Source of the DNA: Squalus acanthias
Taxonomy: Eukaryota
Reading direction: 5' to 3'
NCBI GenBank assembly: GCA_030390025.1
Contig: CM059436.1
Span: forward strand, 92,132,001-92,196,000
DNA length: 64,000 nucleotides
Shown here: positions 1-50,879 of the stretch, in pieces
Layout: each line of letters opens with the position of its first letter
Numbering within the stretch: the stretch's first letter is position 1
Translations under genes and position numbers: made by a program
The notes under the pieces: generated by a model
The model's input: the letters and a program-made list of their open reading frames with translations, nothing else
Databases searched by the model: none
Told to the model about the DNA's origin: nothing

Positions 1-124
1 GATTCCAAAAATAAAAATTGGATAAGACTCTGGAATCTAAATCAACTGCTACAGTTCTTCACGTGATATGTTCCCAATCTGAGCTAATGAGGAATCATCT
101 TATCTCTAATTAGTAGAAAAGGAA

Positions 125-950
125 CAACAATGAAACAAACAGCTTGCATTTATGTAGCACCTTACACATAGAAAACAAAATCCCAATGCGGTTCAGATGC
201 TTAAGGAAAATGAATGTCAGACAAGCAGTCTGGCAGCACAGACGGAGTGGAGGGATTGAGAAAGGTTGTGGAAAGGTACATCTGGGTGCCATCAGTGTAC
301 ATGTAGAAAGCGGATACCATGTCTGCGGATGATGGCACCAAGGGGCAGAAGGTAGATGAGAAAGAGGAGCAGACCAAAGCTAGATCCTTGGAGGATTCCA
401 GAGATGACAGTGTGGGGGACGCGGGGCAGGAGAAGAGGAGTGGCCATTGCTAGAGATGTTCTGGCATTGATCATATAAGTGAGGGCAGTCCCACCAAGCT
501 GGACAACAGAGAGGAGGCAAATTATACTGAAGACTGCAGAGAAGTCAAGGAGAACGAGGAGGGATATTGCACCATGATCAGAGAATGTCATTCATGACAT
601 TAAAGGCCATTCCGGTGCTGTGGAGCAGCAGAAACCTGATTGGAGGGATTCAAACAGGGAATTGCAGCAGTGATGGACATGGATTCAGGAGGCGATAACA
701 TATTCAAGAACTTTGCAGAGGAAAGGGAGGATGTAGATGATGCGGTAGTTTGTCAGGACAGAGGCGCTGAGGGTTTTTTGAGGGGCCGGGTGGAAAGAGA
801 GAGCTATGACTGGCTTTGAAAGGGAGGGGAACAGTGCTTGAGGAGAGGGAGCCATCTACAATGTCAACTAGCACTGGGGCCATGCGTTTAGTGGGAATGG
901 GGTAGAGGTGTGCCTCACGGGCGAGATGAGAGAGAAACTAGGGAAAGAAA
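125..950 (-). mobile_element. L2 LINE fragments (degenerate)
   Basis: GAISLLVLLDFSAVF and GILQGSSFGLLLFLIYLLPLGAII are L2 RT motifs; an L2-type 3' tail lies near 125-170. Confidence 0.7.
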
Positions 951-954
951 GGAA

Positions 955-1413
955 GAAAGAACAACTTCCATTTCTATAGCGCCTTTCACAACCTCAGGAT
1001 GTCCCAGAGCGCTTTACAGCCAATGAAGTACTTTTGAAGTGTAGTCACTGTTGTAATGTAGGAAACCCGGCAGCCAATTTGCGCACAACAAAATCCCACA
1101 AACAGCAATGAGATAATGACCAGATAATCTGTTTTAGTGATGTCGGTTAAGGGATAATTACTGACTAGGACACCAGGGAGAACTCCCCTGATCTTCAAAT
1201 AGTCCCATGGGATCTTTTGCATCCACCTGAGAAAGCAGACGGGGCATTTGTTTAACAGTTCCTCCAAAAAACGGCACCTCCGACAGTGCAGCACTCCCTC
1301 AGTACTGCACTGGGAGTGTCAGTCTAGATTTTGTGCTCAAGTCTTTGGAGTGGGACTTGAATTCACAATCTTCTGACTCAGAGGCAAGAGTGGTACCACT
1401 GAGCCACGACTGA
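955..1413 (-). mobile_element. DeuSINE (SacSINE1/AmnSINE1-like)
   Basis: tRNA-like head, Deu domain (…GATCCCATGG…CATTGCTGTTTGTGGGA…AAATTGGCTGCC…) and L2-like tail. Confidence 0.85.
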
Positions 1414-1981
1414 CAGTAGAGACAAGCAACTTAAAATTAGAGGGCAAGTCAACCATCACCAGTTTCACTCCTCTCCCAGTAGCCCAGGTTAAGAGTATTA
1501 GTGGCAAAAAACTGAACACAGGTCCTCTGCTCAACCTCTCAGTGAGGGAATGATGCACAGCGTAATGGAAACAGAAAATGGGGAGGAAAAATAACAAAAA
1601 TCAAAGTTTCTCTCTTACGATACATTTTACACAACCTAGCCTGCAAACATACATACCTATTCTACCCCTGTTATTATTTATTTCATTGACACTGAGGGTA
1701 GATATTCTGGCCTCTTATCCAGATATTCTTCCTGGACTTGATTTCTGCTTGGATCTCCTGACTGTGCTGTACTGATTGTCAGTAAAACAGTGGTTGTGGG
1801 AAGGTCGCAAGTTTAGAGAGTTTTCTAAATCAAAATTAAATAGAAAATGGAAGACACAAGAACTGACTATAACATCTGCTGTACAGCCAATAACTGTCAT
1901 TAGTTTTAAATTAAGTTAAATATTCAGTTCAAATGAAAACAGATAAAATTGTGTAAACAGAAAATAGTAACAGAAGACTAT

Positions 1982-2735
1982 GGCCCAGAAATTGATCCGG
2001 CTGCGCGAGAGTACGCACAGTGTACACTCGCGCAGCCAGACTTCAATTGCCGGTTTTCAGCATGCACTGCGCATGCACTGAAAACCGGCAATTGATGGAA
2101 GTGAAAGGGGGCGGGTCCTCAGTGCACCGCGTGCGCGCTACAGGCTGCGCGCACGCAGTGCACTTCATCGCTTGCGCACGCAGGTAAGTATTGAAGATTC
2201 TGGAAAAGTAAAAAGCAGGCGCAGGAGCCTCTTTTAACCAGGTAAGTACATAATTAAGTAGTATTTAGAATTTTTTTTTACAGGTAAATCTTTAGTAGCG
2301 ACTTTAAAGACAGGTAAGTTTATTTTTATAACATTTTAAAAGATTTAAAATTTTTTCAAAAATTTATTTTTTTGTTTAAAAAGGTTAATTTATTTAATTA
2401 CACTTATTTTAATAATGTGATGGGTTTTTTTTTTAATTTAATGGAGGTTTAGCTCTTCTTTTGGGGGCTTGTTGTATTCCTAGTTTTCACAGCAGTTCAA
2501 TGGCCGCTGTGAATTCTATGAATGAGAGCTTGGTGTGCTGCCATTGGCTGTAACTCAGTCACGTGATCCCACAGTGCACTCGAACTAACTCCGCACTGTG
2601 GAATCACGATGCACTCGCAGCTGATGGCTGGGACATGAAGTTCCAGCGAGCTGGGACTGAAAAAGCCAAGGCGCAGTGAGACATCGCGGGAAGGGCTTAC
2701 CCTCGCACGAACCCTCACACTGCAATTTCTGGGCC
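1982..2735. mobile_element. PIF/Harbinger-like non-autonomous element
   Basis: 13-bp TIR GGCCCAGAAATTG/CAATTTCTGGGCC, 3-bp TSD TAT and internal palindromes around TGCGCATGCA. Confidence 0.7.
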
Positions 2736-3012
2736 TATACTTATATCTATTTAAAACTATAGATGTTGGAGATTAGTCTGTCACAATTGCTGCAATTTTA
2801 ACAATTTACAAAATTTATGTCTACTGTAGCCACAACTATTATTCTGTTTGCTGAAAAATTCTCATTTTAAAGAAGACTCAAAATTTTTTTTTAAACTGCA
2901 CAACTTATTTTCATTGAAATGTTATGCTTGGGTTCGGATTACCACATAATGAGGGAAAATGTGATACTAGGTTCTAATTCCTGCATCAGATTATTTTGGA
3001 ATTAGCTACACA

Positions 3013-3380
3013 TTTTTTTAAAAATTCTCGGGATGCGGCCTCACTGGCAAGGCCAGCATTTATTGCCCATCCCCAGTTGCCCCGAGAAGGTGGAGGTGGG
3101 CCTTCTTTTTGAACCACTGGTAGTGGTTTGATACAACTGAGTGGCTTGCTGGGCCACTTCAAAGAGCAATTAAGAGTCAACCACGTTGGTGTGGAACTGG
3201 AATCACATTTAGGGCAGACCGGGTAAGGACGGCAGGTTTCCTTCCCTACAGGGACATTAGTGAACCAGTTGGGTTTTTACGCCAATCCAACAGCTTCATG
3301 GTCATGTTGATGTGGTGCTTGTCTCCGCTATACAGCAGACTGGGTAAAGACGGCTGGTTTCCTTCCCTAAAGAACATTTA
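3013..3380 (-). mobile_element. Bipartite SINE-like derivative (partial)
   Basis: Same head and tail sequences as 5437-5930, in reverse orientation. Confidence 0.75.
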
Positions 3381-5436: not shown

Positions 5437-5930
5437 GGGAACGGTAGCATAGTGGTTATGTTACTGGACTAGCAATCCAGAGGCCTGGTAGTAATAATCC
5501 AGAGATGTGAGTTCAAATCCCACCATGGCAGCTTGAGGGATTTAAATTCAATTCAATAAAAAATCTGGTTTTAAAGTGTTAGTATCAGTAATGGTGACCA
5601 TGAAACTACCGGATCGTCGTAAAAACCCATCTGGTTCACTAATGTCCTTTAGGGAAGGAAATCTGCCGTCCTTACCTGGTCTGGCCTATATGTGACTCCA
5701 GACCCACAGCAATGTGGTTGACTCTTAACTGCCCTCTGAAATGGCCCAGCAAGCCACTCTGTAATGTACCAAACTGCTGCGACAAAGTCAGCACTGTGGG
5801 AATACCTTCATCACACGGACTGCAGCGGTTCAAGAAGGCAACTCACCACCACCTTCTCAAGGGCAATTAGGGATGGGCAATAAATGCCAGCCTTGCCAGC
5901 GACACCCACATCCCAGGAACGAATAAAAAA
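5437..5930 (+). mobile_element. tRNA-headed bipartite SINE-like derivative of the 14855-18772 LINE family
   Basis: A-box TAGCATAGTGG (5445-5455) and B-box GTTCAAATCC (5511-5520). The body matches the LINE 5' region and the tail matches the LINE 3' end. Confidence 0.85.
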
Positions 5931-7289
5931 TTCAGAAAGGGGCTAAACAGGCTCCTGTTAGCAAATGGGATTCAGGGCTTTTAGACTTAGAATTGCATCA
6001 TCAACAACAACTTGCATTTATATAGTGCCTTTAATGTAGTAAAATGTCCCGAGGCACTTCGCAAGAGCATGATCAGACAAAAATTGACATCGATAATCAA
6101 GATAATCTCATGAGAGTTTAAAATGGGTAGACTAGATGGAGCAGTGGTCTACTGTTGTCTGAAAATTTCTACTAGGTAAAAGTGTTTTTAATGTATTTTT
6201 AAGAGATTATGAAAGTTAATTATTTCAGATTCAATAGAAAAATAATCAATTTACTGTAAATAGCAAAATAAAAAATAGTTGCAAGTGAGAACAGAGAATG
6301 CAGAATAGAAAAAAAACAGGGGTCAGCCAATCTAAAATCTTCAAAATGTAATACTTAAATTATTGTGTGTTTATCTCTGTAGTTTAAATATTACAATAAT
6401 ATAGCTACCTTTAATACTGGAGTTGCTTTATTACTGTAATATTAGTCAAGGAAATGGGGCTGAGGTACAGATCAGCCATGATCCATTCGAATGGCAGAGC
6501 AGGCTCGAGGGGCTGAACGGCCTACTCCTGTTCCTGTGCTCCACTGAAATTTAACGAGTCGGACTTTCTTTTTTAATATAGAAGGGCAGCAGATTAGGAG
6601 ATCTGTTTTTAACGGAGTCTTGCTGGGGCAAGGAAACGTGCTGACCTAGCAGCAGCAAAGCATTTACTGGCAGTGGAACCACAACCTCCTCACGCAATTT
6701 CCAGTGGTTAGGTCGTGACGTCAATTTTCATTGGCATGGTGCCAGTTCTTCAGGCATTCACGCCGGCCAAACTGTCATGGCCACTCTGCGCCTGCACGAA
6801 ACAGCAAGACTCACGGGTACAGCTTGTCTCCAAGCAAATCAGCTGCGTCATCCACAAGTAAAAATGGGAAAGAGGTGCACTTGGACTACTCTCCCAAGAT
6901 CGAGGCTTGCAATGTAAAAGCAGCTTTAGAAGAAACAAAATCAGCCAGTGAACGCCATTAAAAAAAAATCATTCTCGGGATATGGGCATCGCTGGCAAGG
7001 CCAGCATTTATTGCCCATCCCTAGTTGCCCTCGAGAAAGGTGGTGGTGAGCTGCCTTCTTGAACCACTGCAGTCCGTGTGGTGAAGGTACTCCCGCTGTG
7101 CTGTTAGGGAGGGAGTTACAGGATTTTGACCCAGCAACAATGAAGGAACCGCAATATATGTCCAACTCGGAGGTGATGGTGTTCCCTTGTGCATGATGCC
7201 CTGGTCCTTCTAGGTGGTGGAGGTTGCTGGTTTGGGAGGTACTTCTGTAAATAAGAATTGTATCGTCTAGCAATAGCCACAGTAGGCAC

Positions 7290-12257: not shown

Positions 12258-13172
12258 TAAAAATAAAAAACAGAAAATGCTGGAAATACTCAGCAGGTCA
12301 GACAGCATCTGTGGAGAGAGTTAACGTTTCAGGTCGATGACCTTTCGTCAGAACTAGAAAAAGTTGGAGATGTAACAGATTTTTAAGCAAGAGTAGGGGC
12401 AGGGAAAGGGGGGAGGGGAGGAAAGAACAAAAGGGAAGGTCTGTGATAGGATGGAAGGCAGGAGAGATTAAGAGACAAAAGGGATGATGGTGCAAGGCAA
12501 AAGGAGATGGTAATGGAACAAGTTAAGAAACAAAAGATGACTCTAGATGAAGTGTAAATGGAATGGCAGAATGATCAACAGCTGCCATGTGAAAGAGAAA
12601 AAAACAATAGGGGCAGAGGTTATGGTCTGAAATTGTTGAACTCGATGTTGAGTCCAGAAGGCTGTAAAGTGCCTAATCGAAAGATGAGGTGCTGTTCCTC
12701 GAGCTTACATTGAGCTTCATTGGAACAGTGTAAGAGGCCAAGGACGGAGAGGTCTGAGTGGGCGTGGAGCGGAGAATTAAAGTGACAGGCGACCAGAAGC
12801 TCAGGGTCACCCTTACGGACTGAACGGAGGTGTTCCGCAAAGTGGTCACCCAATCTGCATTCGGTCTCCCTAATGTAGAGGAGACCACATCGTGAGCAGC
12901 GAATACAGTGTACTAAGTTGCAAGAAGTACAAGTAAATCGCTGTTTCACCTGGAAGGGGTGTTTGGGGCCCTGGGCAGTGGGAAGGGAGGAGGTAAAAGG
13001 GCAGGTGTTGCATCTCCTGCGCTTGCATGGGAAGGTGCCGGGAGAAGGGGAAGGGGTGTTGGGGGTGATAGAGGAGTGGACCAGGGTGTCGCGGAGGGAG
13101 CGGTCCCTTCGGAATGCTGAAAGGGGAGTTGAGGGGAAGATGTGTTTGGTGGTGGGATCACGCTGGAGGTGG
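12258..13172 (-). mobile_element. Penelope-like element 3' fragment with GIY-YIG endonuclease and pLTR
   Basis: ORF 12620-12949 (FTCTSCNLVHCIRCSRCGLLYIRETECRLGDHFAEH…CHFN…EQHLIFRLGTLQPSGLN) is a PLE GIY-YIG domain with the CCHH pattern; a hammerhead motif lies downstream. Confidence 0.88.
12319..12356 (-). ncRNA. Minimal type-I hammerhead ribozyme motif
   Basis: AGUU-CUGACGA-A-AGGUC(auc)GACCU-GAAA-CGUU-AACU: helix I AGUU/AACU and palindromic ACGU helix III. Confidence 0.7.
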
Positions 13173-13550
13173 CAAATAAACTTTTATTTATTTGGTAGGA
13201 AAACGTCACAAGGCTCTTCACAGGAGTGTAATGGTCTAATTGAATGGCGGAACAGGCGTGAGGGTCCGAATGGCCTGCTCTTGTTCCTATGTAAGCAGAC
13301 AAAGTTGGTCACCGGGCGAAAGGAGACTTTAGGAGGGTGTCCAAAAGCTTGGTCCAGGAGGTAGGTTTTAAGAAGGGTCTTAAAGGAGGAGACACAGGTG
13401 GTGAGGCAGAGGGATTTAGGGAGAGAATTCTACAGCTTGCGGCCTAGACGGCTGAAGGCACCCCACCAATGGCTGCTGAGGAACGTTGAAAGGTATAAAG
13501 TGATAGAATTCACCGAATTACTACTCGGTGGCACATTGTACTATACTCAC

Positions 13551-14854: not shown

Positions 14855-17800
14855 TTTTTTTTAATTAATTCCTGGGATGTGGGCATCGCTGGCAAGGCCA
14901 GCATTATTGCCCATCCCTAATTGCCCTTGAGAAGGTGGTGGTGAGCCGCCTTCTTGAACCGCTGCAGTCTGTGTGGTGAAGGTACTCCCACAGTGCTGTT
15001 AGGTAGGGAGTTCCAGGATTTTGACCCAGCGACAATGAAGGAACAGCGATCTATTTCCAAGTCAGGATGGTGTGTAACATGATGGGGAACTTGCAGGTGG
15101 TGGTGTTCACATGCGCCTGCTGCCCTTGTCCTAGTCCTTCTAGGTGATAGAGGTCACGGGTTTGGGAGGTGCTGTTGAAGAAGACTTGGCGAGTTGCTGC
15201 AGTGCATCTTGTAGATGGTACACACTGCAGCCACGGTGCGCCGGTGGTGGAGGGAGTGAATGTTTAAGGTGGTGGATGGGGTGCCAATCAAGTGGGCTGC
15301 TTTGTCCTGGATGGTGTCGAGCTTCTTGAGTGTTGTTGGAGCTGCACTCATCTAGGCAAGTGAAGAGTATTCCATCACACTCCTTACTGGGTCTTTTAGA
15401 TGGTGGAAAGGTTTTGGGGAATCAGGAGGTGAGACATTCGCCGCAGAATACCCAACCTCTGACCTGCTCTTGTGGCTGGTCCAGTTAGGTTTCTGGTCAA
15501 TGGTGACCCCCAGGATGTTGATGGTGGGGGATTCGGCGATGGTAATACCGTTGAATGTCAAGGGGCGGTGGTTAGACTCTCGCTTGTTGGAGATAGTCAT
15601 TGCCTGGCACTTGTGTGGCACAAATGTCACTTGCCACTTATCAGCCCAAGCCTGAATGTCATCCAGGTCTTGCTGCATGCGGGCATGGGTTGCTTCATCA
15701 TCTGGGGAGTTGTGGATGGAACTGAACACTGTGCAGTCATCAGTGAACATCCCTACTTCTGACCTTATGATGGAGGGAAGGTCATTGATGAAGCAGCTGA
15801 AGATGGTTGGGCCTAGGACACTGCCCTGAGGAACTCCTGCAGTGATGTCCTGGGGCTGAGATGACGGAGCTCCAACAACCACAACCATCTTCCTTTGTGC
15901 TAGGTATGACTTCAGCCAGTGGAGAGTTTTCCCCGATTCCCATGGACTTCAATTTTACTAGGGCTCCTTGATGCCACACTCGGTCAAATGCTGTCTTGAT
16001 GTCAAGGGCAGTCACTCTCACCTCACCTCTGGAATTCAGCTCCTTTGTCCATGTTTGGACCAAGGCTGTAATGAGGTATAGCGCCGAGTGGTCCTGGCGG
16101 AACCCAAAATGAGCATCGGTGAGCAGGTTATCGGTAAGTGCCGCTTGATAGCACTGTCGACGACACCTTCCATCACCTTGCTGATGATTGAGGGTAGACT
16201 GATGGGGCGGTAATTGGCCAGATTGGATTGGTCCTGCTTTTTTGTGGACAGGTCATACCTAGGCAGTTTTCCACATTGTCGGGTGGATGCCAGTGTTGTA
16301 GCTGTACTGGATAGCCTGGCTAGAGGCGCAACTAGTTTTGGAGCACAAGTCTTCAGCACGACAGTTGGGATGTTGTCAGGGCCCATAGCCTTTGCTGTAT
16401 CCAGTGCACTCAGCCGTTTCTTGATATCACATGGAGTGAATCAAATTGTCTGAAGACTAGGTTTCTGTGATGGTGGGGACCTCAGAAGGCGGCCGAGATG
16501 GATCATCCACTCGGCACTTCTGGCTGAAGATGGTTGTAAATCCTTCATCCTTGTCTTTTGCACTCGCAAGCTGGGCTCCACCATCATTGAGGATGGGGAT
16601 ATTCATGGAGCCTCCTCCTCCCCCCCATTAGTTGTATAATTGTCCACCACCATTCACGACTGGATGTGGGAGGACTGCAGAGTTTTGATCTGATCCGTTG
16701 TATGTGGGATCGCTTAGCCCTGTCTATAGCATGCTGCTTCCACTGTTTAGCATGCATGTAGTCCTGTGTTGCAGCTTCCCCAGGTTGGTACCTCATTTTT
16801 AGGTACGCCTGGTGCTGCTCCGGGCATGCTTTTCTACACTCCTCATTAAGAACATAAGAGCAGGAGTAGGCCATACGGCCCCTCGAGCCTGCTCCGCCAT
16901 TCAATAAGATCATGGCTGATCATCGACCTCAACTCCACTTTCCTGCCCGATCTGCATATCCCTTGATTCCCCTAGAGTCCAAAAATCTATCTATCTCAGC
17001 CTTGAATATACTCAAAGACTCAGCATTCACAGCCCTCTGGGGCAGAGATTTCCAAAGATTCACAACCCTCTGAGTGAAGAAATTCTTCCTCATCTCAGTC
17101 TTAAATAGCCTACCCCTTATCCTGAGACTATGCCCCCTAGTTCTAGAATCTCCAGCCAGGGGACACAACCTCTCAGCATCTACCCTGTCAATCCCCTTCA
17201 GAATCTTGTATGTTTCAATGAGATCACCTCTCATTCTTCTAAACTCCAGAGAGTATAGGCCCATTCTACACAATCTCTCATCATAGCCCTCACATCCCAG
17301 GAATCAATCTAGTGAACCGCCTCCAAGGCAAGTATATCCTTCCTTAGATAAGGAGACCAAAACTGTGCACAGTACTCCAGGTGTGGTCTCACCAAGGCCC
17401 TGTACAATTGTAGCAAGACTTCCTTACTCTTATACTCCAACCCCCTTGCAATAAAGGCCAACATGCCATTTGCCTTCCTTATTGCTTGCTGTACCTGCAT
17501 GCTAGCTTTCTGTGTTTCTTGCACGAGGACACCCAAATCTCTCTGAACACCTGGCTTGATGGTAATGATAGAGTGAGGGATATGCCGGGCCATGAGGTTA
17601 AAGATTGTGGTGGAATACAATTCTAATGATGCTGATGGCCCACAGCGCCTCATGGATGCCCAGTTTTGTGCTGCTAGATCTGTTCTGAATCTATCCCATT
17701 TAGCACGGTGGTAGTGTCACACAACACGATGGAGAGTGTCCTCAGTGTGAAGATGGGACTTCGTCTCCACAAGCATTGTGCGGTAGTCACTGCTACCAAT

Positions 17801-18772
17801 GCTGTCATGGACAGATGCATCTGCGACAGGTAGATTGATGAGGACGAGGTCAAGCAGGTTTTTCCTCGTGTTGGTTCACTCAGCACCTGCCGCAGGCCCA
17901 GTCTGGCAGCTATGAGCCTTAGGACTCGGCCAGCTCGGTCAGTAGTGGTGCTACTGAGCCACTCTTGGTGATGGACATTGAAGTCCCCCACCCAGAGTAT
18001 ATTCTGTGCCATTGCTGCTCTCAGTGCTTCTTCCAAGTGGTGTTCAATATGGAGGAGTATTGATTCATCAGCTGAGGCAGGGCAGTAGGTGGTAATTAGC
18101 AGGAGGTTTCCTTGCCCTTGCTTGACCTGAAGCCATGAGACTTCATGTGGTCCAGCGTCAATGTTGAGGATTTCCAGGACCACTCCCTCCCGACTGTATA
18201 CCACTGTGCCGCCAGCTCTGGTGAATCTGTTCTGCCGGTGGGACAGGACATACCCAGGGATGGTGATTGAAGAGTCTGGGACATTGGATGAAAGGTATGA
18301 TTGTGAGTATGACTATGTCAGGCTGTTGCTTGACTAGTCTGTGGGACAGCTCTCCCAATTTTGGCACAAGTCCCCAGATGTTAGTGAGGAAGACTTTGCA
18401 GGGCCGACTGGGCTGGGTGCGCCACTTTCGTGTCCGAACCCGGTGCCGAGGTCGATGCCCGGTGGGCTGTCCGGTTTTATTCTTATTATTGCTTTTCGCA
18501 GTGGTTTGTGACAACTGAGTGACTTGCTAGGTCGTTTCAGAGGGCAGTTAAGAGTCAACCACATTGCTGTGGGTCTGGAGTCACATATAGGCCAGACCGG
18601 GTAAGGACGGCAGATTTCCTTCCCTAAAGGACATTAGTGAACCAGATGGGTTTTTACGACAATCCGATAGTTTCATGGTCGCCATTACTGATACTAGCTT
18701 TAATTAACTGAATTGAAATTCCTCAGCTGCCGTGGTGGGATTTGAACTCACGCCTCTGGATCATTAGTCCAC
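14855..18772 (-). mobile_element. Near full-length single-ORF LINE (APE endonuclease + RT; CR1-group, possibly Zenon-like) with tRNA-type head
   Basis: EN motifs (TNIWGL, PDIVILT, WVGDFNVH) and RT motifs (NYRPISL, ALDIKTAFDRVWH, GVPQGSVLGP, FTDD) across frameshifted ORFs. The 3' tail is …GCCAGCGATGCCCACATCCC+A-tail and the 5' head has a B-box at 18738-18749. A CR1 fragment interrupts it. Confidence 0.88.
16848..17550 (-). mobile_element. CR1 LINE 3' fragment nested in the larger LINE
   Basis: VQRDLGVLV…RPHLEYCAQFWSPY…RRMRGDLIETYKIL…FFTQRVVNLW plus the CR1 3' tail. Confidence 0.9.
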
Positions 18773-18845
18773 GGTCACACACTTCCTAACAGCTGGTTAA
18801 ATTGGTAGGCCCCTGAGAGCAGCTTGTCTGCCCATCCACATGTTC

Positions 18846-19280
18846 TTTTTATTTATATTCAGTCATGGGATGTGGGCGTTGCTGACAAGGCCAGCATTTA
18901 TTGCCCATCCCCAATTACTCGAGAAGGTGGTGGTGAACCGCCTTCTTGAACCGCTGCAGTCCATGTGGTGAAGGTACTCCCACAGTGCTGTTACGAAGGG
19001 AGTTCCAGAATTTTAACCCAGCGACGATGAAGGAACGGCGATATATTACTAAGTTAGGATGGTGTGTGACTTGGAGGGGAACTTGCAGGTGGTGGTGTTC
19101 CCATGCGTCTACTGCCCTTGTCCTTCTAGGTGGAAGAGGTCATGGGTTTGGGAGGTGCTGTTGAAGAAACCTTGGCGAGTTGCTGCAGTGCATCTTGTAG
19201 ATGGTACACACTGCAGCTACGGTGTGCTGGTGGTGGAGGGAGTGAATGTTTAAGGTTGTGGATGGGGTGCCAATCAAGTG
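18846..19280 (-). mobile_element. 5'-truncated 3' fragment of the same LINE family
   Basis: Colinear with 14870-15295; a similar shorter fragment lies at about 6958-7250. Confidence 0.8.
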
Positions 19281-26482: not shown

Positions 26483-26975
26483 GTGGACTAATGATCCAGA
26501 GACGTGAGTTCAAATCCACGGCAGCTGGGGAATTTAAATTCAGTTAATTAAATAAATCTGGAATAAAAAGCTAGTATCAGTAATGGTGACCATGAAACTA
26601 TCGGATTGTCGTAAAAACCCATCTGGTTCACTAATGTCCTTTAGGGAAGGAAATCTGCCGTCCTTACCCGGTCTGGCCTATATGTGACTCCAGACCCACA
26701 GCAATGTGGTTGACTCTTAACTGCCCTCTGAAATGGCCTAGCAAGCCACTCAGTTGTAACAAACCGCTACGAAACAAAATAATAAGACGGACTGCAGCGG
26801 TTCAAGGCGGCAGCTCACCACCACCTTCTCAAGGGCAATTAGGGATGGGCAATAAATGCTGGCCTGCATGAAGTGTAGCCACTTGTACAAGGTAATAGAG
26901 GTCATCCAGTGTACATTGAACGTTATCTCGCAACGAGTCAGTGCTTTCAGCGACGCCCACATACGAATAAAAAAA
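26483..26975 (+). mobile_element. Bipartite SINE-like derivative of the same LINE (with an 85-bp templated insert)
   Basis: Begins at the same base as the LINE copy (GTGGACTAATGATCCAGAG) and joins 5' sequence …AATAATAAGA directly to 3' sequence CGGACTGCAGCGG…. Confidence 0.85.
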
Positions 26976-29250: not shown

Positions 29251-31142
29251 AACTCAATAAAATATCTTTGGCCATTTCCTCAGTCTCAAAACAGACACTG
29301 GATGGTATGGAAAATGAAAAGTTCACACTGGTGCAGTAGTCGGTGCAGTTCTGGGCCTAAGGCACACAGTTGGAGCAAAGCAAAGTTTTAATCTCCAGCT
29401 GTCTGTGCTATACCTGACCTTGGAGTGCTCAATGCTAGCACTGGATGAAAAAAAAATGTTTCACACTCCCCAGCATGGATATCTTTCACCTTGATGAGCA
29501 CAGAACCTTCTCCCCACCTCTGTAACCTACCTATTTTCTCAAGTAACAGCACTCAACAAAAATAAGTGACTGCACAGTCATAAGTTAAATCTGGTTCGTG
29601 TGTTGAACTAAAATATATATATCTGCCAAATGGCATTTAAAGTGATTGCTTTTGATCAGCATGCTGCACCTGCTTCAGCTTGCTAATCATGGCATCACTG
29701 CACTGTAGGTTAAGGGAAAGTCCCAGCTAATATCTATCTGTAATGAGACTAAATAGCTATAGGGACAATTTTATTTTGTGAAACACCAAATACAGTACTG
29801 CAAATGATTTTATTCTATGATTCTATGAATGCTTTCAACCATTTGAATGCCTTTTTTTCAATGTTTAATGATCTTAATAGAGAGACACTGGCCTCCAACA
29901 AAATACTGACAAAACACAAATGGTATAGTGCAGGCTTCCTCTTCCCTCCCCTGCAATTATGCAAATCACAGAAAAGCAAATTAGAGGATACGTAGATTCT
30001 GTGAGATAGTATAAAACAGTTAACAAAAGAAATGTTAGCGGTGAATAAGAACTCTGCGAAAAGTAACAAGCACATAATGTAGAATAAATATAGAATGTAA
30101 TCTATCAGCACAAGACCTATCAGCTCTTTGCATAAGACTAATCCAATGGTTTGAGTATTAAATCTTCTAAAGCTATTTTAAGAGGTTCCATTAACGCAGG
30201 GCAGCAACCTAATAGCACCAAGCTTGGCAAGGTATGCTGTATTTAGTATGCACTTTGCATTAGAGCCGCAGCGTTAAGGAGCTCCAACCCTTAAGCCTCA
30301 TTTGAAATTTTAAATAAAAATTGAAGATTTTTTTCAGAAAATAACATTTTGGGACACAGTATAGGAGAAATTTGAGACATGACATGTGGTAAGTGTAGCG
30401 TGCTTGGGAAGAAAAGGGCAGCTTTAGACCGATGGTTCCCAAAGCTCTCCGCACTGGGAATTTCCCAGTGTCATGTCTGGGTCTTTTGTAGACTAATTAA
30501 TGGAGATTGACTGCTATGATTAGTCAACAACTCCATTATCGTTGTATCATGCGATTACCGGGATGGTAGAAGGCAAACTAGATGGACCTCGGGCATTTAT
30601 CGTCGAGCTATTCTTATATTCCTAGTATTTCTCAACTATTTATCAACTTCCCTCTTAAATGTCATTACTGACTTAACTTTCATAGCCATTTACGGCAAAG
30701 CAATCTATATCCATACTCTCAAGTTTTAAAACTTGTCTTCTAACCTCCCACTTCCTGCTTCCAGTACGAGCCCTAAATTTATCTTATCCCCCAACAAGAA
30801 ATTTTCCTGATGTCCTGGTGACAATTCTCCCTCATCCAACACCACCAACACAAAAGCAGATTAACTGATCATTCATCTTGTTGCTGTCATGGGTAAATTG
30901 TTGTGTATAAAATGGCTGCCGTGTTTATCAACATAACTTTAACAGCACTTTAATAAGAAGATTGCATGTGAAACCAAGAAATCCATTTGCTATTTTATTT
31001 TATTTTTCCACATGTAATCTTGCTTTTAAAGATCTGTGTATCTGGCATTCTTGGAACTCTGTTCCTCCATTGCATTGACTTTTTTGAATCTGCCTACAGC
31101 ATATTTTACTGTAAAAGGTGGGGAGAGGAGAGGAAACGGGGG

Positions 31143-31642
31143 NNNNNNNNNNNNNNNNNNNNNNNNNNNNNNNNNNNNNNNNNNNNNNNNNNNNNNNNNN
31201 NNNNNNNNNNNNNNNNNNNNNNNNNNNNNNNNNNNNNNNNNNNNNNNNNNNNNNNNNNNNNNNNNNNNNNNNNNNNNNNNNNNNNNNNNNNNNNNNNNNN
31301 NNNNNNNNNNNNNNNNNNNNNNNNNNNNNNNNNNNNNNNNNNNNNNNNNNNNNNNNNNNNNNNNNNNNNNNNNNNNNNNNNNNNNNNNNNNNNNNNNNNN
31401 NNNNNNNNNNNNNNNNNNNNNNNNNNNNNNNNNNNNNNNNNNNNNNNNNNNNNNNNNNNNNNNNNNNNNNNNNNNNNNNNNNNNNNNNNNNNNNNNNNNN
31501 NNNNNNNNNNNNNNNNNNNNNNNNNNNNNNNNNNNNNNNNNNNNNNNNNNNNNNNNNNNNNNNNNNNNNNNNNNNNNNNNNNNNNNNNNNNNNNNNNNNN
31601 NNNNNNNNNNNNNNNNNNNNNNNNNNNNNNNNNNNNNNNNNN
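31143..31642. other. Assembly gap (500 N) flanked by purine-rich GGAGAGGAAACGGG-like repeats
   Basis: N run with G/A-rich repeat units on both sides. Confidence 0.98.
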
Positions 31643-34543: not shown

Positions 34544-37373
34544 TTAGGAGGTGTGGACGAGACGGTGCGGCGGTCTGATGGGCCGGCCGGAGCGGCTCTT
34601 GTAGGACGCCGGTGGACGTGGAACGGCCAGGCGTGGAGCAACCGGGTGAACCGGCTTGAGGGCAGGTCGGCCGCGTGGAGGTGGACGAGCTACAGGGCCC
34701 TGCTCACCGGGCTCCGAGTGTGCTGGCTTGAGTCGGTCCACCGACACTTTTTCGGTCCTGTCGCCCACTTGCAGGGTGAAAAATTTGTCCCCAGCCTGTA
34801 GCACCTTGTAGGGCCCGTCGTACGGGGGTTGAAGGGGTCCGCAGTGGGCGTCGTGCCGAACGAAAACAAACCGTGCCTGGTGCAGGCTTAGTGAGACGTG
34901 TGAGGTGGATTCGCCGTGCCGGGCAATGGGCACCGGGGTGAACTGCAGCGCCGGTGAGGCGAAGTCGTGGCGTTGCTGGTCAGCTGACCAGGGTGTCGTG
35001 GCGGTGGGCAGGAACTCGCCGGGTACGCGCAGCGGCTGACCGTACACGAGCTCTGCTGCCGATGCGTGGAGGTCTTCTTTAACCGCGGTGTGCAGGCCGA
35101 GGAGGACCCACGGAAGTCGGTCGGTCCAGGTGCCGTCTTGGAGGCTGGCTCGAAGAGATGCCTTCAAGGATCTGTGGAACCGCTCACACAGTCCGTTGGC
35201 TTGGGAGTGGTACGCTGTGGTGCGGTGAATGGTCACCCCGAGATTGCGTGCGACGGCGGTCCAGAGTTCAGAGGTAAATTGCGGACCTCTGTCCGACGTC
35301 ATGTCGGAGGGGACGCCAAACCGTGCAACCCAGGTGCTGACAAAGGCTCTGGCGATGTCGGCGGTGGTGGTAGAGGTCAGTGGAATTGCCTCAGGCCAGC
35401 GTGTGGTGCGGTCAACGATTGTCAGCAAGTGCATGTGGCCTTGCGACGGCGGCAGGGGCCCGACGATGTCCACGTGGATGTGGTCGAATCTCCGCGAGGG
35501 GACGGTAAACTCCTCGAGGGGTGCTTTCGTGTGTTGCTGTACCTTGGCCCGTTGACAGGCTAGGCAGGCGTTGGCCCAAGTACGCACATCCTTGCGAAGG
35601 CCGCGCCAGACAAAGCGGTTGGCTATCAATTTGATGGATGCGCGGGCGCCGGGGTGGGAGAGGTTGTGGAGAATGTCGAATACCCGGCGGCGCCAGGACG
35701 CTGGGACGACGGGCCGAGGTTGACATAGGGATATGTCGCACTTGACCGTGACTGCGGTCGGGCCACAGGCGACGTCGGCCAGGCATAGCCCTGGTAGGTT
35801 GGTGGGTGCGGAGAGCAGATCAGGGTTGGTGATCTGGTCTGCTGCGAGTTGAGCGTAGTCGACTGCTAGGTGTGCGGCGTGGATGGCGAGGCGGGAGAGG
35901 CAGTCGGCTACCACATTGTCTCGGCCGGAGACGTGTTGGATGTCCGTGGTGAACTCGGACACTGCCGCGAGCTGGCGCTGCTGCCTGGCGGACCAGGGGT
36001 CGGTTGTCTTTGCCATTGCGAATGTCAGGGGCTTGTGGTCGACAAACGCAGTGAAGGGGTGGCCCTCAAGCAAAAACCGGAAATGGCGGACCGCCAGGAA
36101 CAGCGCGAGGAGCTCGCGGTCGAAGGTGCTGTACTTGACCTCCGGGGGGCGTAGTTGGCGGCTGAAGAAGGCAAGTGGTTGCCAGGCGCCGTTGACCCAC
36201 TGCTCATACACGGCGCCGACCGCATGGTCGGAGGCGTCCGTGGTGAGCGCTACCCTGGCATTGGGCCGTGGGTGCGCGAGCAGGGTGGCGTTGGCGAGCG
36301 CGGTCTTGGTGGAATCCAAGGCGGTGGACGCGTCTGCCGTCCATTCGACCGCCATCTTGCCGCTCCTGCCCCGGAGGGCTTCATACAGGGGCCTCATGAG
36401 GGACGCCGCTTTGGGGATGAAGCGGTTATAGAAATTCACCATCCCGAGGAACTCCTGGAGGCCTTTGATGGTGGTGGGGCGGGGAAATTGTTGGACGGCC
36501 TGCACCTTGGTGGGCAGGGGAATGGCCCCAGCATGGGTGATGTGGTGGCCGAGGAAGTCGATCTTGTCCAGGCCGAACTGGCATTTGGCTGGGCTGAGGA
36601 TGAGCCCGTGGTTGCTGAGGCGCCCGAACAGGATGCGAAGGTGTTCGAGGTGTTCCTGCTTGGAGGAACTGGCTACCAGGATGTCGTCCAGGTAGACGAA
36701 CAGGAACTTCAGGTCCCGAAGGACCGAGTCCATGAGCCGTTGGAATGTCTGGGCCGCGTTTTTGAGGCCGAAGGGCATCCGCAGGAACTCGAACAGGCCG
36801 AAGGGGGTGATTACGGCCGTCTTGGGGACGTCCGCGGGGTGGACGGGGACTTGGTGGTAGCCGCGCACCAGGTCGACCTTGGAAAAGACTGAATGTGCGG
36901 CACGGGGTACCGATCAGGGGTGGTGGCGTCATTGAGGCGGCGGTAATCCCCGCAGGGGCACCAACCTCCGCCTGGTTTGGGGGCGATGTGGAGTGGGGAG
37001 GCCCAGGGACTGTTGGAGCGGCGGATGATGCCGAGCTGTTCCATAGTGGCAAACTCGGTCCGCGCGATCTCCAGTTTGGCCGGGTCCAGCCTGCGGGCGT
37101 GGGCGTACACTGGGGGGCCTGTGGTGGGGATGAAGTGTTCCACCCCGTGTTTGGCGGCCTCCGCGGAGAAGGTCGGATTGGTAAGGGCCGGGAATTCGGC
37201 CAGGAGTGCCGAGTAGTCATCCGTGGCCCGGGCGTGGCACTGTGACGCCATGTCGGCGGGTTGACGGGGGGCCATGGCGCCCAGGATGGGGGACATGGTG
37301 TTCATGTCCACGAGGCGGTGACGAGGGATGTCTACCAGTAGGCCGTGGGCGCACAGGAAATCTGCGCCGATGA
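34544..37373 (-). pseudogene. Gypsy pol (RT, RNase H, integrase) with a small deletion in RT
   Basis: SNSPWASPLH, GDYRRLN and YPVPHIQ, then a frame-breaking deletion near 36890 before FSKVDLVRGYHQ. After that come YLDD, TTDASD (RH), HxxxH/CxxC, the D-D-E triad (HVDIVG, SDRGPQF, CERFH) and a GPY motif, all in a 774-aa open frame. Confidence 0.92.
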
Positions 37374-38326
37374 GGGGGGGAGAGCACCTTGGCAGTGATG
37401 AACTCCCATCGGTAGCGGTGACCAGCGAGGTCGAGGGTGACTGTCCGGGTGCCATACGTCCGGATTTCCGAGCCGTTAGCAGCAGCCAGCGCCGGTCCTC
37501 GTTCGCCCTTTTGGATGTCGAGGGAGGAGGCCGGGATGATGCTGTGCTGAGCCCCAGTGTCGCACAGGAACCGGCGGCCGGTTTTGTCATCCGTGACGAA
37601 CAACAGGGAGCCCGCGTGGCCCACGGCCATCGCGGGGGCTGGAACGAGGGCGGACTTGAAAGAGCAGGGAGGTGTGCACCGTTGTGCCCTGGCGCCGAAC
37701 CGTGCGTGGTAGTAACAGTGGCCCGGGTTAGTGGGGCGTGAAGGCCCCGTGGGCCTGGTGACAGGCCCTTGTGGCCACGTGCTGGATGGTGAGGGGCGCG
37801 CCCAGGCATTGGCTGCCAGGTCCGGAGTGACGTCGCGGCTGGAGTGAGCGGACAGCAGCTTGTCGGCCTCATCGGCCAGGGCTTCCAGGTTCGTGAGGCC
37901 GGACGCCACGATCGCTGGGCGGATGCTGAGAGGGAGCTGGCGGATGAACAGCGTGCGGAAGAGGGATCCGGGTGGGCTCTCGTCTGTGAGGGAGAGCATG
38001 TGGGAGAGGAGGTCTGACAGTGAGGCATCACCGAGGCCTGGAAGGTCGAGGAGGTGGCAGTTTCGCTGATATGCCGAGGCCGTAAATTTTTTAAGGAGTG
38101 CTGTCCTGAGATGTGCGTGCTTGCCTTCCTCTGGTGGGTTCTGCAGCGTTGTCCAAACCTTGGAAACTGCGGCGCTACCGAGTGATGTGACGAGATAGTC
38201 GTACTTCGTCCCATCTGTGGTGATATTTTGCAGCCGGAAGCGAGATTCAGCTTGGAGAAACCAGGCTTCGGGCTGGTTTTCCCAAAACTCCGGCAGTTTC
38301 ACAGAAACTGCGTTCGTGTCCGCCAT
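37374..38326 (-). pseudogene. Gypsy gag + aspartic protease (frameshifted at a C7 run)
   Basis: KLPEFWENQPEAWFLQAESRF N-terminus, CHCC motif CYYH-x9-CTPPC and protease FLCDTGAQHS. The frame shifts at the G7 run 37374-37380 (+ strand) into …PLIGADFL. Confidence 0.85.
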
Positions 38327-38366
38327 TGCAGTGCTCGGAATACGTTCTGAGCGTCGGGGTCACCAA

Positions 38367-42079: not shown

Positions 42080-42335
42080 AGTTCAGTAATGTCCTTTAGG
42101 GAAGGAAACCTGCCATCCTTACCTGGTCTGCTTCATAAGTGATTCAAGTCCCACACTGATGTAGTTGACTCTTAACTGCCCTCTGAAGTGGCCTCACAAG
42201 CCACACAGTTGTATAAACCCACTACAAAGAGCGCAGTTCAAGAAGAACACCCACTACCACCGCAGGGAAACTAGGGATGGACAATAAATGCCGGCCTTGC
42301 CAGTGACACCCACATCCAGAGACTGAATTTAAAAA
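42080..42335 (+). mobile_element. Bipartite SINE-like derivative (partial, older)
   Basis: gtcctttagggaaggaaa…ctcttaactgccctctgaa…aataaatgccggccttgccag, same family. Confidence 0.7.
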
Positions 42336-46574: not shown

Positions 46575-47990
46575 TCAAATCTGTGGGAACCGTTAAGAAT
46601 CTATGGAATTTGGAAGATGACAACCAATGCATCCATTATCTCTATAGCCACCTCTTTTTTAAAACCCTAGGATGTAAGGCCATCAGGCCCTGGGGATTTA
46701 TTGGCTTTCAGTCCCATTAATTTCTCCAGTACTATTTCCTTACTAATACTAATTTCTTTCAGTTCCTCATTCTCACTAGACCCTTGATTCTCCACTATTT
46801 CCGGAATGTTTTTGTGTCTTCCGTGAAGACCGACAGACACGAAGTATTTGTTTAATTTCTCTGCTATTTCCTTATCCCCATTATAATTTCTCCTGTCTCA
46901 GCCTGTAAGGGACCCATGTTTACTTTCGCTAATCTTTTCCTTTTTACCATGATTACTGTATTACCCCTGTTACATGCATCTCTAATTTCCTGATTTATAC
47001 TCTGCCTGACACTACAACTACTGTTAGGGGGCCTATAAACTACTCCCACTAGTGTTTTCTGCTCTTTGTTGTTTTTACGCTCCACCTCAACTGATTCTAC
47101 ATTTTGTTTTTCTGAGCCAAGATCCTTTCTCTCTCCTGTCTTTATCCCATCCTTTATTATCAGGGCAACCCCCCTCACCCCCTCCTTTTCCATTCTGCCT
47201 GTCTCTCTTCTAAAAGTCAAATATCCTGGAATATTTAGTTCCCAACCTTGGTCACTCTTAAACCACGTCTCTGTAATGGCTATTAAATCAAACCCATTTA
47301 TTTCTATCTGTGCTATTAATTCATCTATTTTGTTGCGACTGCTTCATGCATTCAGATATACTACCATTAGCTTTAACTTTTTTCAAATTTTTCGTGATGT
47401 TACTTTAGTCACTGGTGCCCTATTACCTTTATCAATCTCTCTGTCCCTTCCTGACCCATTCTGCTTATCTTTACCCAGATCACTACTCTGCGCTACAGCC
47501 TTGACATTTGTCTTACTGCTTTTGAATTTACCCTTTTCTGAATCCAATCCTCCCCCCACTTCATTAGTTTAAAGCCCTATCTACCACCCTAGTTATTCGA
47601 TTCGCCAGGACACTGGTCCCAGCCTGGTTTAAGTGGAGCCCGTCCCAACTGAACAACTTTCCCCAGTACTGATGCCAGTGTCCCATGAATCGAAACCCCT
47701 TCCTCCCGCCACTCTTTGAGCCATGCATTTAACTCTCTGATCTGTCTGGCCCTATTCCAATTTGCACGTGGCTCAGGTAACAATCCAGAGATTATTAACT
47801 TTGAGGTTCTGCTTTTTAATTTGGCCCCGAGCTGCTCAAACTCCCTCAGCAGAACCTCATTCCTAGTTCTACCTATGTCGTTGGTTCCTACATGGACCAT
47901 GACCACTGGATCCTCCCACTCCAACTTTTTCTCCAGCCGTGACGAGATATCCTTAACCCTGGCACCGGCAGGCAACACAACCTTCGGAAC
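46575..47990 (-). mobile_element. CR1 5' fragments: ORF1 SGNH-esterase and ORF2 endonuclease
   Basis: LPAGARVKDI…VHVGTNDIG…IISGLLPEP (esterase) and GVALIIKD…VGVVYRPPNS (EN). A plus-strand CR1 3' tail lies at ~46290-46560. Confidence 0.85.
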
Positions 47991-50879
47991 TCCCGATTGC
48001 AGCTCCCGACCGCCTGCATCTTAGCTTGGAGCTCTGATACATCAGTGCTGGGCGTACACCTTGCAGTCTCTTGTTTAAAACTTGACTGCCCCCCAAACCT
48101 GGTTTTATTTTCTTGCTGTTTGTAAATTCTGATGCCTAAAAGTAGAAGGGGAAAAGGAGCAGGCGTCCACATGAATAGAATCTTCCTCACCACATTGGAT
48201 GTGAATAATTGTTGGCCGCTTGAGACAGGATAACCAATTGCTTAACTTACCATTGATCCTGGCTGATAGGCTTGGGATCAGACAATAGACCCTCATTGTA
48301 GCAACTTGAAAAAGATTTAGCTGTGACATCCCACAAACTAGCTTGTCTTGCTTTAATGTACCTCTTCAATGCCTGCAGTCTTCTGCCTTTTTAAAATAAA
48401 AAATCATTTGCAAATTCACTGTTTTAAAACACGATGCTTCAATTTCCATGATGGGGAAAAAAATTACAAAAATTCTGAAACATAAAACAAAGAAAGTCAT
48501 GCTCAAACTGTATTGTGCTTTGCTCAGACCACAGCTTAAATACTGTGTCCAGCTGTTGTCACCTAGATGCAAGGGACACATTGAAGTATGGGAGAAATTT
48601 CTGAGAAGAGCCTCAAGGTTGTACCCTAGTATCAAAGGACTGACGTATGAGGAAAGACAGGAGAAATTTGGGCTTTTCAGCCTTGAAGAGAAGTAACCTT
48701 TCAGAAATATCTATCTGCGTATCTTACTTAATATTTTGCATCTTTGCACAGTCACTGTCTACAAAACTTTACTTCCTGTTGTCAGGTTTTTGCCATTTTT
48801 GTTAACTTTTTTTCCATTATAAATTTCTATGTTCACAGTTATAATGGAAACTGCTGACATAAACGTGTCTTTCTAATTACAACCTTCCGCCAGTGGTGAC
48901 GCTGTGGCGCCGCAGATTTGGATCTCTCCGCTCCTCCGCCTGTACTGCAGAGAAACTCCTATCGTCCAACCAGTTCTACCAGTTCTATTTCTCTGCTTCC
49001 CAAACTTCCCTAAGTTTTGGCCTTGACTCCAGGTGTGCAGTGCCACAGGAGATTGATTAGTAAGATAGTAAATGGTATGGCAAAGGTAGATCCATAAAAT
49101 TACTTCTAACTAAATTGAGACAGTAGAACAAGAGTACACATTCAAACTAGTTAAAGGTATACTTTGGACTGATGTTGGGAAGTTAGTCACACAGCGATTC
49201 ATATGATCAGTACTGACGAGGAGGGCCATTTGGCATATTTTAGTTTATTCAGACAGAAAGATGAAGTCACCCCCACTGCAATATTCAACAGTTTGTTAAA
49301 TGATTCCAGGGTTTTTACCTCTAATACTATATCTGGAAGTCCATTCCATGTATTGATCACTCTGAGAAGAACTTCCTGATATCAGTCCTAAATTTGCCAT
49401 TTACTAGTTTGAACTTGTTTTGCCTTTTCCTACTCTTGCAAATTAATTTTAAGTAACATTCTGGTCTTGCCTTTTAAAAACTAGTATGTATCTTGGGTAT
49501 ATACCGCCTATAAAATATCTCTTGGATGCCTACTCTGAAAGGCACTCTGGAAATTTTTTTTTAATCTCCAGTCATTCCTCATAGCTCAGAACACTTCCTC
49601 ATAGCTCAGAACCCTAACGGTGATAATCAGCCTTGTGACTCATTGCTGCACTCCAGCACTTGGAATGTCTCTCTTGTGCCTGTGACCAAAAGTGGACATA
49701 GTACTCAAAGTACGGTGTAATCGGTACTATACAGTTTGATCGTGACTTCCTCTGAAAAGAGTAGAATAATGTCAATGTTTTATTAGCTTTATTCATTGTT
49801 GTGCTGCACTGGCTGGATGTGTTGAGTCAGCAATCCGTGTTGAGTCAGCAATCCATGTTGAGTCATCGAGGCGTGGAATGGGCTTCCAATTAGAGTAGTT
49901 GAGGTGAAAACCATAGAATTATTTTAAAAACAATTGGATGCCACAGTGGTCTTTCTGGATGGATGAACTAACATGGGCTGAACGGTCCTTTTTCCTTCAA
50001 TAATTATCATGTGACTATAAAAGTGCCTGAAAGCATCACCTAGATACTGCACGGTATCGCATCTGCGGCGCCAAGTATTTTCATCCCATCAATATAGGCT
50101 AAATTTGAATCAGATTTGAGCTGAAAAGATTCTAACTCACTGTATTTTTCAATCACCCAAAATTAATCTCCTAACTATTAACCTGTTGGACAAGAATGAA
50201 AAAACCACTTGGCCCAGTGAAGCCTGTAGAGCTTTGATCTATTGAAATGTAAAGATAAAATGTTAGCTTTGAAGCTCTCCTTCCTCTGAAGAGTTATGAT
50301 CTCATTGCCATTTCTTGTATCAAAGTTTTAAATCTCTATCCAACCAATATTTTGATTAACACTTTGAAGTTTCAATGATTTATCAAAACTTGTTTGATAA
50401 AAATAATCATTCTAATTGGTCTGTTCAAGGTGTCCCACTCTCTTGAAGTCCACTCTCTCTATCATTTTATATTATTCACTGCTCACAATCTACCTGTTTT
50501 TAAGACTTCTTGCACTGAGGCAGAAACAGTGGGTTGAAAAAGCTATAAAACAAAATTTGAGCCCTAGGCTCTGGAATAAGGGCTTTTGAGATCCCTTAAA
50601 TCTGAGAACCATGCAATACAAGTTTAATTAACTCTAATAGATAATATCACTCTTGAAAGACAATTGATAATTTAATAAAAGTAGTTAATTACAAAGTAAA
50701 TGATGAAGGCCCATGGTGATTGAATTTTTCAGCTGCAGGATTGGGATTTTGGGATGTTCTAGCATTATGACCTTGGCGTTTATATTGGAACCTTTTCTGG
50801 TCTATTATTTTGTTTTATTCGGTATTTTTCTACAAAATGGACTGCTCTTGTGCTGAAGATTCTTCTTTTTTTTTAAAAA

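Follow-up and report, generated by a model that had tools for sequence, protein, structure and literature searches.

Zenon elements are long interspersed nuclear elements (LINEs) which, in the account of five elasmobranchs given in PMC13343379, lack a first open reading frame (ORF1), end in a poly-A tail, share more than 84% identity and group with crustacean elements. The portions of PMC5786205 that deal with short derivatives treat LINEs as transcripts of RNA polymerase II (Pol II) and consider that such derivatives received their heads afterwards, and Zenon-derived elements of butterflies are described without a promoter for RNA polymerase III (Pol III) in the relevant part of PMC6740152. 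Among the short interspersed nuclear elements (SINEs), SacSINE1 is a tRNA-headed Deu SINE of sharks whose tail was assigned to L2-2_CM (PMC5499810). For bivalves, PMC11481361 names CR1-Zenon as partnering Deu SINEs, and the function of SINE central domains is called unknown where PMC4824008 discusses them. Here, we analyse a stretch of 64,000 nt from the dogfish Squalus acanthias (assembly GCA_030390025.1, contig CM059436.1, positions 92,132,001 to 92,196,000 of the forward strand), in the following called the window. It carries a decayed copy of a Zenon-type LINE at 14855-18771 on the minus strand. The combination of a head with A and B box at the exact 5' end, a reading frame under selection, avoidance of terminators and SINE-like deletion products leads us to predict, from the sequences, that this family is an autonomous LINE transcribed by Pol III and translated without an AUG start, which we regard as moderately probable.

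DNA queries of the 3.7-Gb genome returned 4,406 and 5,350 first-look candidates. The family comprises thousands of 3.3-kb elements dispersed over many contigs, and the window copy is one of them. From an alignment of 29 near-full copies, the colinear ones out of 40 fetched, a majority sequence of approximately 3,314 nt was derived, from which copies diverge by 3-7%. The tRNA-type head of this majority has its A box at +9 and its B box 63 nt further on. Behind the head come a conserved body, the triplets ATG GCC TAG at +303 and a TAA; at +330 a single open frame begins, which has 973 codons and is followed by a short 3' untranslated region (UTR) and an A tail. The frame is thus preceded by a non-coding leader of 329 nt and by no ORF1, for which the initial annotation of the window had rightly seen no room. 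Natural copies match the Pfam models Exo_endo_phos (APE endonuclease) and RVT_1 (reverse transcriptase, RT). No copy proved fully intact; 819 codons is the greatest open length, and each of 47 protein matches contains at least one stop. Flanks differ among copies. Target-site duplications could not be used to delimit the unit, as a match of at least 7 bp was present at only 1 of 31 complete 3' ends. The 3' tails are A-rich in the 35 ends listed, some being preceded or replaced by T-runs; they range from A alone to T3-T9 followed by A (as at 6969 and 3013 in the window), which could be a terminator remnant or a tail mutation.

By sequence, the family is the catalogued elasmobranch Zenon LINE. 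The first 400 letters of SquAca_Zenon-1 (PMC13343379) equal our majority by eye, head included, and the length is 3,314 in both. The main text of that source contains neither 'tRNA' nor 'polymerase III'. Closest non-shark proteins are about 40% identical and lie mostly on contigs of 3.2-5 kb; no relatives were found among viral contigs. A quick RT tree, which held no named Zenon reference, placed the family beside a clade with a protein of the crab Scylla (SH-aLRT support 82) and away from the CR1 of the same genome; the position near a crab protein agrees with PMC13343379. A protein of Heptranchias perlo annotated as 'aldo-keto reductase' (P0049) has a stretch 78% identical to the family frame and is probably a gene model incorporating the repeat.

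The window copy covers element positions 50-3314 and differs from the majority by approximately 6-7%. It is split by a nested CR1 3' fragment (16848-17549, minus strand, as are all further parts of this copy); its extent and the insertion agree with what had been annotated, as does the B box at 18738-18749. Behind the B box follows the conserved non-coding body (18536-18737), by eye the same in five elasmobranch consensuses. This body is putatively Deu-domain-like and may be akin to that of SacSINE1. A two-codon upstream open reading frame (uORF) at 18527-18535, in frame with the long one, reads ACG ACC TAG here and ATG GCC TAG in the family. The single frame for APE endonuclease and RT (14917-18508) is interrupted in this copy by stops, frameshifts and the CR1 insert, and the 3' UTR with A-rich tail occupies 14855-14916. 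The LINE was said to begin with a head of about 240 nt; head and body in full measure 329 nt, and 5' truncation has removed the first 49 nt together with the A box. Directly upstream of the copy lies a separate 3' fragment of the same family (18848-19278, element positions 2882-3314), and an older 3' fragment is found at 6969-7243, both on the minus strand.

The tRNA-type head is the family's own 5' end. Among 29 copies chosen by endonuclease DNA alone, 20 reach head or body, 8 start at most 9 nt from +1, and 9 end within the reading frame. A further 20 copies chosen by an unrelated protein (20 of 47 fetched) include 13 that reach head or body and 4 that start at +1 or +2. Inspection by eye of the first 400 letters of the white shark, whale shark, catshark, stingray and dogfish consensuses showed both boxes kept while the spacer changes. 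In the first four species the boxes are followed by the same body and by ATG GCC TAG, there is no TTTT in these 400 letters, and the B box is the canonical GGTTCGAATCC in three, the stingray being one base short. No tRNA head was seen by eye in the first 400 letters of hagfish and coelacanth Zenon, where runs of T4 or longer are present, and none of 66 relatives with upstream DNA carries a pair of A and B box.

The initial annotation had named a chance neighbouring SINE as one of the findings that would overturn its proposal. Chimeras of the U6-L1 type do arise by template switching, and in principle recurrent SINE-LINE chimeras without function could be formed in the same manner. Against this stands a single colinear arrangement from head to tail, present in dozens of copies and in the published consensuses of five species. 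Because the junction is shared, chance adjacency is refuted, and we assign this explanation next to no probability.

As an observation apart, the family head carries between +35 and +70 a tandem pair of hairpins resembling anticodon arms. The first has the loop AGT (Thr) by eye, and the second varies between species.

The 5' ends of inserts cluster 7-8 nt upstream of the A box: out of 61 heads bearing an A box, 36 start with GGG and 6 with GG, at one fixed distance. This bears on a second explanation, in which a LINE transcribed by Pol II has captured the front of a SINE, whose head and body serve as internal Pol II promoter and 5' UTR. Persistence of the boxes would then be due to the short derivatives, which would be Pol III SINEs, or to a benefit of TFIIIC binding. 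LINEs are normally Pol II products (as stated in PMC5786205), and an AATAAA-like end before the poly-A tail would suit such a transcript. As read from the insert 5' ends, the RNA start keeps the distance to the A box that is typical of tRNA genes, and LINE consensuses of five species retain the boxes; both points speak against this explanation. The same holds for the missing extra G. For L1 and SVA RNA, an untemplated G is regarded as the mark of a cap in the passages of PMC4859970 on these elements; in our set a G precedes GGG in 5 of 36 cases against a background of 18%, and this lack of excess is weak evidence against a capped family RNA. All in all, we consider the Pol II explanation unlikely, though it is the strongest of the alternatives.

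T-runs are depleted in the family. The majority contains no TTTT, 7 TTT and no 6-nt window with 5 T, compared with 28 such windows for A. In the window copy, 3,215 nt of sense strand hold one TTTT, 10 runs of at least 3 T and 19 runs of at least 4 A, where roughly 17 of the latter had been estimated. The sole TTTT (16106-16109) was annotated as a mutation in QFGF codons, which is correct: the majority reads CAG TTT GGG (QFG) there, and it is thus private to this copy. Decayed family copies have 0-3 TTTT each, at scattered sites. A comparison with composition-matched expectation had been demanded by the initial annotation. Zero TTTT is borderline, with p = 0.014 under base shuffling and p = 0.025 when the protein is kept at its own composition. 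Shorter runs are clearly below expectation: with protein and codon usage kept, TTT stands at 5 against 11.3 expected (p = 0.003) and TT at 75 against 91. Of 22 codons that precede a TT-codon, none has T as its last letter, compared with 23% overall, and the observed-to-expected ratio of junction TT is 0.36 in the Zenon family against 0.69-1.06 in 17 hand-picked relatives.

Most relatives show no such depletion. Relatives matching over less than 1,500 nt were left out, which kept 124 of 160 loci (65 of 80 in another relative scan); none of the 124 LINE stretches lacks TTTT, and their lowest TTT ratio is 0.50, compared with approximately 0.3 in the Zenon family. For CR1 of the same genome, the majority was split into two frames, of which the 584-codon one was tested (L165 being left out for its N). 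It has 3 TTTT against 3.2 and 16 TTT against 14.3 expected from base composition. Nearby CR1 copies had been said to contain several TTTT each; this holds for two of them (4 in 1,385 nt, 7 in 1,171 nt) and is overstated for the nested one (2 in 703 nt). Sequence changes within the family point in the same direction as the counts. Changes to T that make TTT account for 1 of 52 shared and 110 of 965 private changes (p = 0.016), and those landing beside another T for 13 of 52 and 397 of 965, respectively (p = 0.013).

If the family were a Pol II LINE, its T-poverty would be an inherited trait of the clade, or would reflect avoidance of splice, polyadenylation or U-rich decay signals. TA is depleted as well (0.64), the nulls for TTTT are weak, and T-poverty is common to L251, the nearest relative with DNA, all of which would suit this explanation. 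TTT is depleted in the Zenon family (p ≤ 0.003) and not in L251 (p = 0.12), which it does not account for; L251 lacks its 5' end and has an in-frame ATG.

L251 (positions 1-3099) is an intact, T-poor relative of 953 codons with a poly-A tail and with poly-C before the in-frame ATG, filed in a bacterial metagenome-assembled genome; many of the 80 genome-contig matches have the look of animal LINEs that binning assigned to bacterial genomes. Four related single-ORF proteins (P0012, P0014, P0015, P0016) on contigs of 3.4-3.6 kb have 1.6-1.8% Phe (median 3.3%; Zenon family 1.8%) and are candidates for a separate T-poor lineage.

The long frame is under purifying selection in head-bearing source lineages. 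For non-CpG variants in 60 copies, 35 of them with head, the ratio of nonsynonymous to synonymous variants is 0.80 (1 stop) when the variant is common to at least 4 copies and 2.90 (81 stops) when it is private (p = 1.5e-12), and all 160 shared variants are present in at least one head-bearing copy. How the frame is entered is less ordinary. Its first in-frame Met is codon 287 in the majority, and ten AUGs lie upstream. The ACG at 18535, ATG in the copy at 5741, had been proposed as start codon. We reject this: the triplet is in frame, but opens the two-codon uORF, whose TAG follows two codons on, here and in 25 of the 27 family copies that span this site; a TAA six codons further is present in most copies as well. 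The CAG that replaces the TAG in the 5741 copy is a minority variant (2 of 11 copies shown). With the proposed start being wrong, translation becomes stranger rather than simpler. The only near-cognate codon noted before the endonuclease is an ACG at codon 4, which reads ACA in 16 and ATG in 5 of 49 copies, changes as expected of a decaying CpG. Ten upstream AUGs, a uORF stop and the missing in-frame AUG suit cap-dependent scanning poorly, a further point against a Pol II transcript.

A conserved AUG 49 nt after the uORF was also tried and not taken as the start, because it is out of frame with the endonuclease and missing from 16 of 29 rows. An out-of-frame AUG at about +352 (approximately 18483 in the window), which overlaps the endonuclease start, is shared by the main published consensuses of the five elasmobranchs and is lost in one large dogfish subfamily that includes the window copy.

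Short SINE-like copies are internal deletions of the Zenon LINE. Four of them lie in the window. The one at 5437-5930 (plus strand) comprises the full head, the body and the ORF start, joined from element position 346 to 3170 to the LINE tail; it is the sister copy for which an A box had been noted, and indeed has its A box at 5445-5455 and its B box at 5509-5520. The others are at 26484-26865 (plus strand, junction 357 to 3196), at 3013-3378 (minus strand, junction 340 to 3204, tail of T5 and then an A-run) and, older, at 42081-42335 (plus strand, junction 343 to 3206). Of 29 loci chosen by the head, 11 continue into the LINE, and another 2 continue into it beyond an internal deletion. In 15 the front is joined directly to the tail, and 1 could not be classified; the head query was itself a short copy, so these shares are biased. 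The exact 346 to 3170 junction occurs in 6 of the 15 short loci. The short copies retain the first codons of the LINE frame, which identifies them as deletion products.

These derivatives also bear on a third explanation, a two-transcript model in which a Pol III RNA is copied while other copies, through Pol II read-through transcripts or spliced host RNAs, supply the protein in trans. No new mechanism of translation would be needed to account for the head, the avoidance of T and the lack of a start codon, and the many short derivatives (15 of the 29 head-selected loci) show that trans-mobilisation works. Strong purifying selection on the frame in source lineages is easier to understand if the copied RNA also makes the protein, and we think this model improbable.

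Several observations weigh against Pol III transcription of the family. ORF1 loss is general in Zenon (PMC13343379, as far as its description of the clade goes) and is therefore no sign of Pol III. ARAGORN found no tRNA, and the Rfam tRNA match to the truncated head at 18727-18791 reaches 18.2 bits, which is under the gathering score of 29. The first G of the GGG start could itself be cap-derived. Zero TTTT is not significant when protein and codon usage are kept (p = 0.097), under shuffling of codon order (p = 0.15) or of dinucleotides (p = 0.18). Shared changes making TTTT number 0 of 52 against 21 of 965 private ones (p = 0.33), the TTT comparison limited to synonymous changes gives p = 0.16, and Phe TTT:TTC stands at 3:15, which is not significantly under other NNY codons (p = 0.12). 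According to the termination data of PMC5725217 for human cells, Pol III reads through T1-T3 and T4 terminates 75%; the significant depletion thus sits in TT and TTT, which are read through. L251 is also T-poor (T 0.20, TTTT 1 against 3.9, junction TT 13 against 25.6), so part of the family's bias may be inherited. A run of T4 or longer was seen in only 5 of 35 family tails. Folding energies of leader and head are no better than those of shuffled sequences (z from -0.06 to +0.9) and give no signal of a structured internal ribosome entry site. Contigs from 4 runs of guessed RNA type cover all 30 bins, and contigs of this kind cannot show strand, start or polymerase.

Provided that Pol III does transcribe the family, the following course of events may be envisaged. 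An ancestral Zenon would have acquired SINE head and body, probably by template switching, before the split of sharks and rays. Its already T-poor frame would have permitted Pol III read-through, and selection would afterwards have excluded terminators. TFIIIC and TFIIIB would set the start of transcription approximately 8 nt upstream of the A box, with the tail or a flanking T-run marking the end of the RNA. The weakest step is the translation start. We predict a cap-independent, non-AUG route in which the ribosome would begin in the short zone after the uORF, either at the in-frame ACG of codon 4 or by reinitiation after Met-Ala-stop. That Pol III-made RNAs retrotranspose without ORF1p was reported for the L1 system (PMC2666806, in the experiments concerned), in keeping with Pol III transcription of a family that has no ORF1. 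In its widest form, the proposal says that an autonomous LINE has relied on Pol III for as long as sharks and rays have existed, by means of a 3.3-kb uncapped, terminator-free RNA translated without AUG, with the SINE body (possibly a Deu domain) acting as translation-entry element and local SINEs arising as deletion products. We put this wider form forward tentatively.

The remainder of the window contains other mobile elements. A GC-rich (60-65%) coding region of the long terminal repeat (LTR) retrotransposon type at 34544-38359 (minus strand) has an open frame of 789 codons for RT, RNase H and integrase as well as a DUF7041 gag-like frame, and looks young compared with its surroundings. At 46864-48020 (minus strand) we find a CR1 5' region, in which an esterase (GDSL-like) ORF1 remnant slightly under the Pfam cut-off is followed by the endonuclease start. 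A frame with CxxC motifs at 12620-13308 (minus strand) has no Pfam match; presumably, it resembles the GIY-YIG endonuclease of Penelope-type elements. An assembly gap (run of N) at approximately 31140-31640 adjoins purine-rich simple sequence.

The family itself is already catalogued as Zenon. No description of a tRNA-headed or Pol III LINE was found in the literature searched, nor of this family's head, its lack of T-runs or its missing AUG; Repbase, Dfam and subscription journals lay outside the search. LINEs are taken as Pol II and SINEs as Pol III products, and a natural, long-lived, protein-coding Pol III retrotransposon, if true, would break this split. Vertebrates would then offer a case of a long mRNA that is made by Pol III and translated along a route of its own, and, should both Pol III transcription and non-AUG translation be shown, this would be a new kind of LINE expression. 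Since a conserved SINE body immediately precedes a reading frame in this family, the role of such domains, as discussed in part of PMC4824008, becomes testable by reporters. The family reverses the usual story of SINE origin, and it could inform compact single-ORF tools for gene insertion.

R2 is a known case of a single-ORF element that is not a Pol II transcript and has a non-canonical translation start; it borrows Pol I in the ribosomal DNA and has a restriction-like endonuclease and a ribozyme. Its rRNA co-transcript and ribozyme are cited in the section of PMC5786205 on such elements. The window family differs from R2 in its APE domain, its dispersed copies without targeting of ribosomal DNA and its predicted own Pol III promoter. 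Closest of all are the elasmobranch Zenon elements (SquAca_Zenon-1/2/3, CarCar_, RhiTyp_, ScyCan_ and HypSab_Zenon-1), which in the description of PMC13343379 are likewise of about 3.3 kb, without ORF1, with APE and RT and a poly-A tail; no sequence difference was found from SquAca_Zenon-1 over its first 400 letters by eye. Zenon elements of invertebrates, hagfish and coelacanth share the single ORF and the A tail, but no tRNA head was seen in the 66 relatives scanned or, by eye, in the first 400 letters of the hagfish and coelacanth elements. The DeuSINEs SacSINE1 and LmeSINE1, according to the relevant parts of PMC5499810 and PMC4824008, possess a tRNA head, a conserved body and a LINE-type tail and occur in sharks, and our short copies of approximately 490 nt have the same layout. 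DeuSINEs are non-coding, whereas the full element of the window family codes under purifying selection and only its derivatives are short and non-coding. The published tail donor of SacSINE1 is L2-2_CM, which PMC5499810 inferred, where it treats this tail, from that of CmiSINE (78.6% alike), whereas the short copies in the window derive from the Zenon LINE. Bipartite non-autonomous LINEs and SIDEs, such as Persaeus from Zenon (treated in parts of PMC6740152 and PMC5786205), resemble these short copies in joining LINE 5' and 3' ends. In those elements the LINE 5' end is not tRNA-derived and the head is thought to have been added later; in the window family, the autonomous LINE is already headed.

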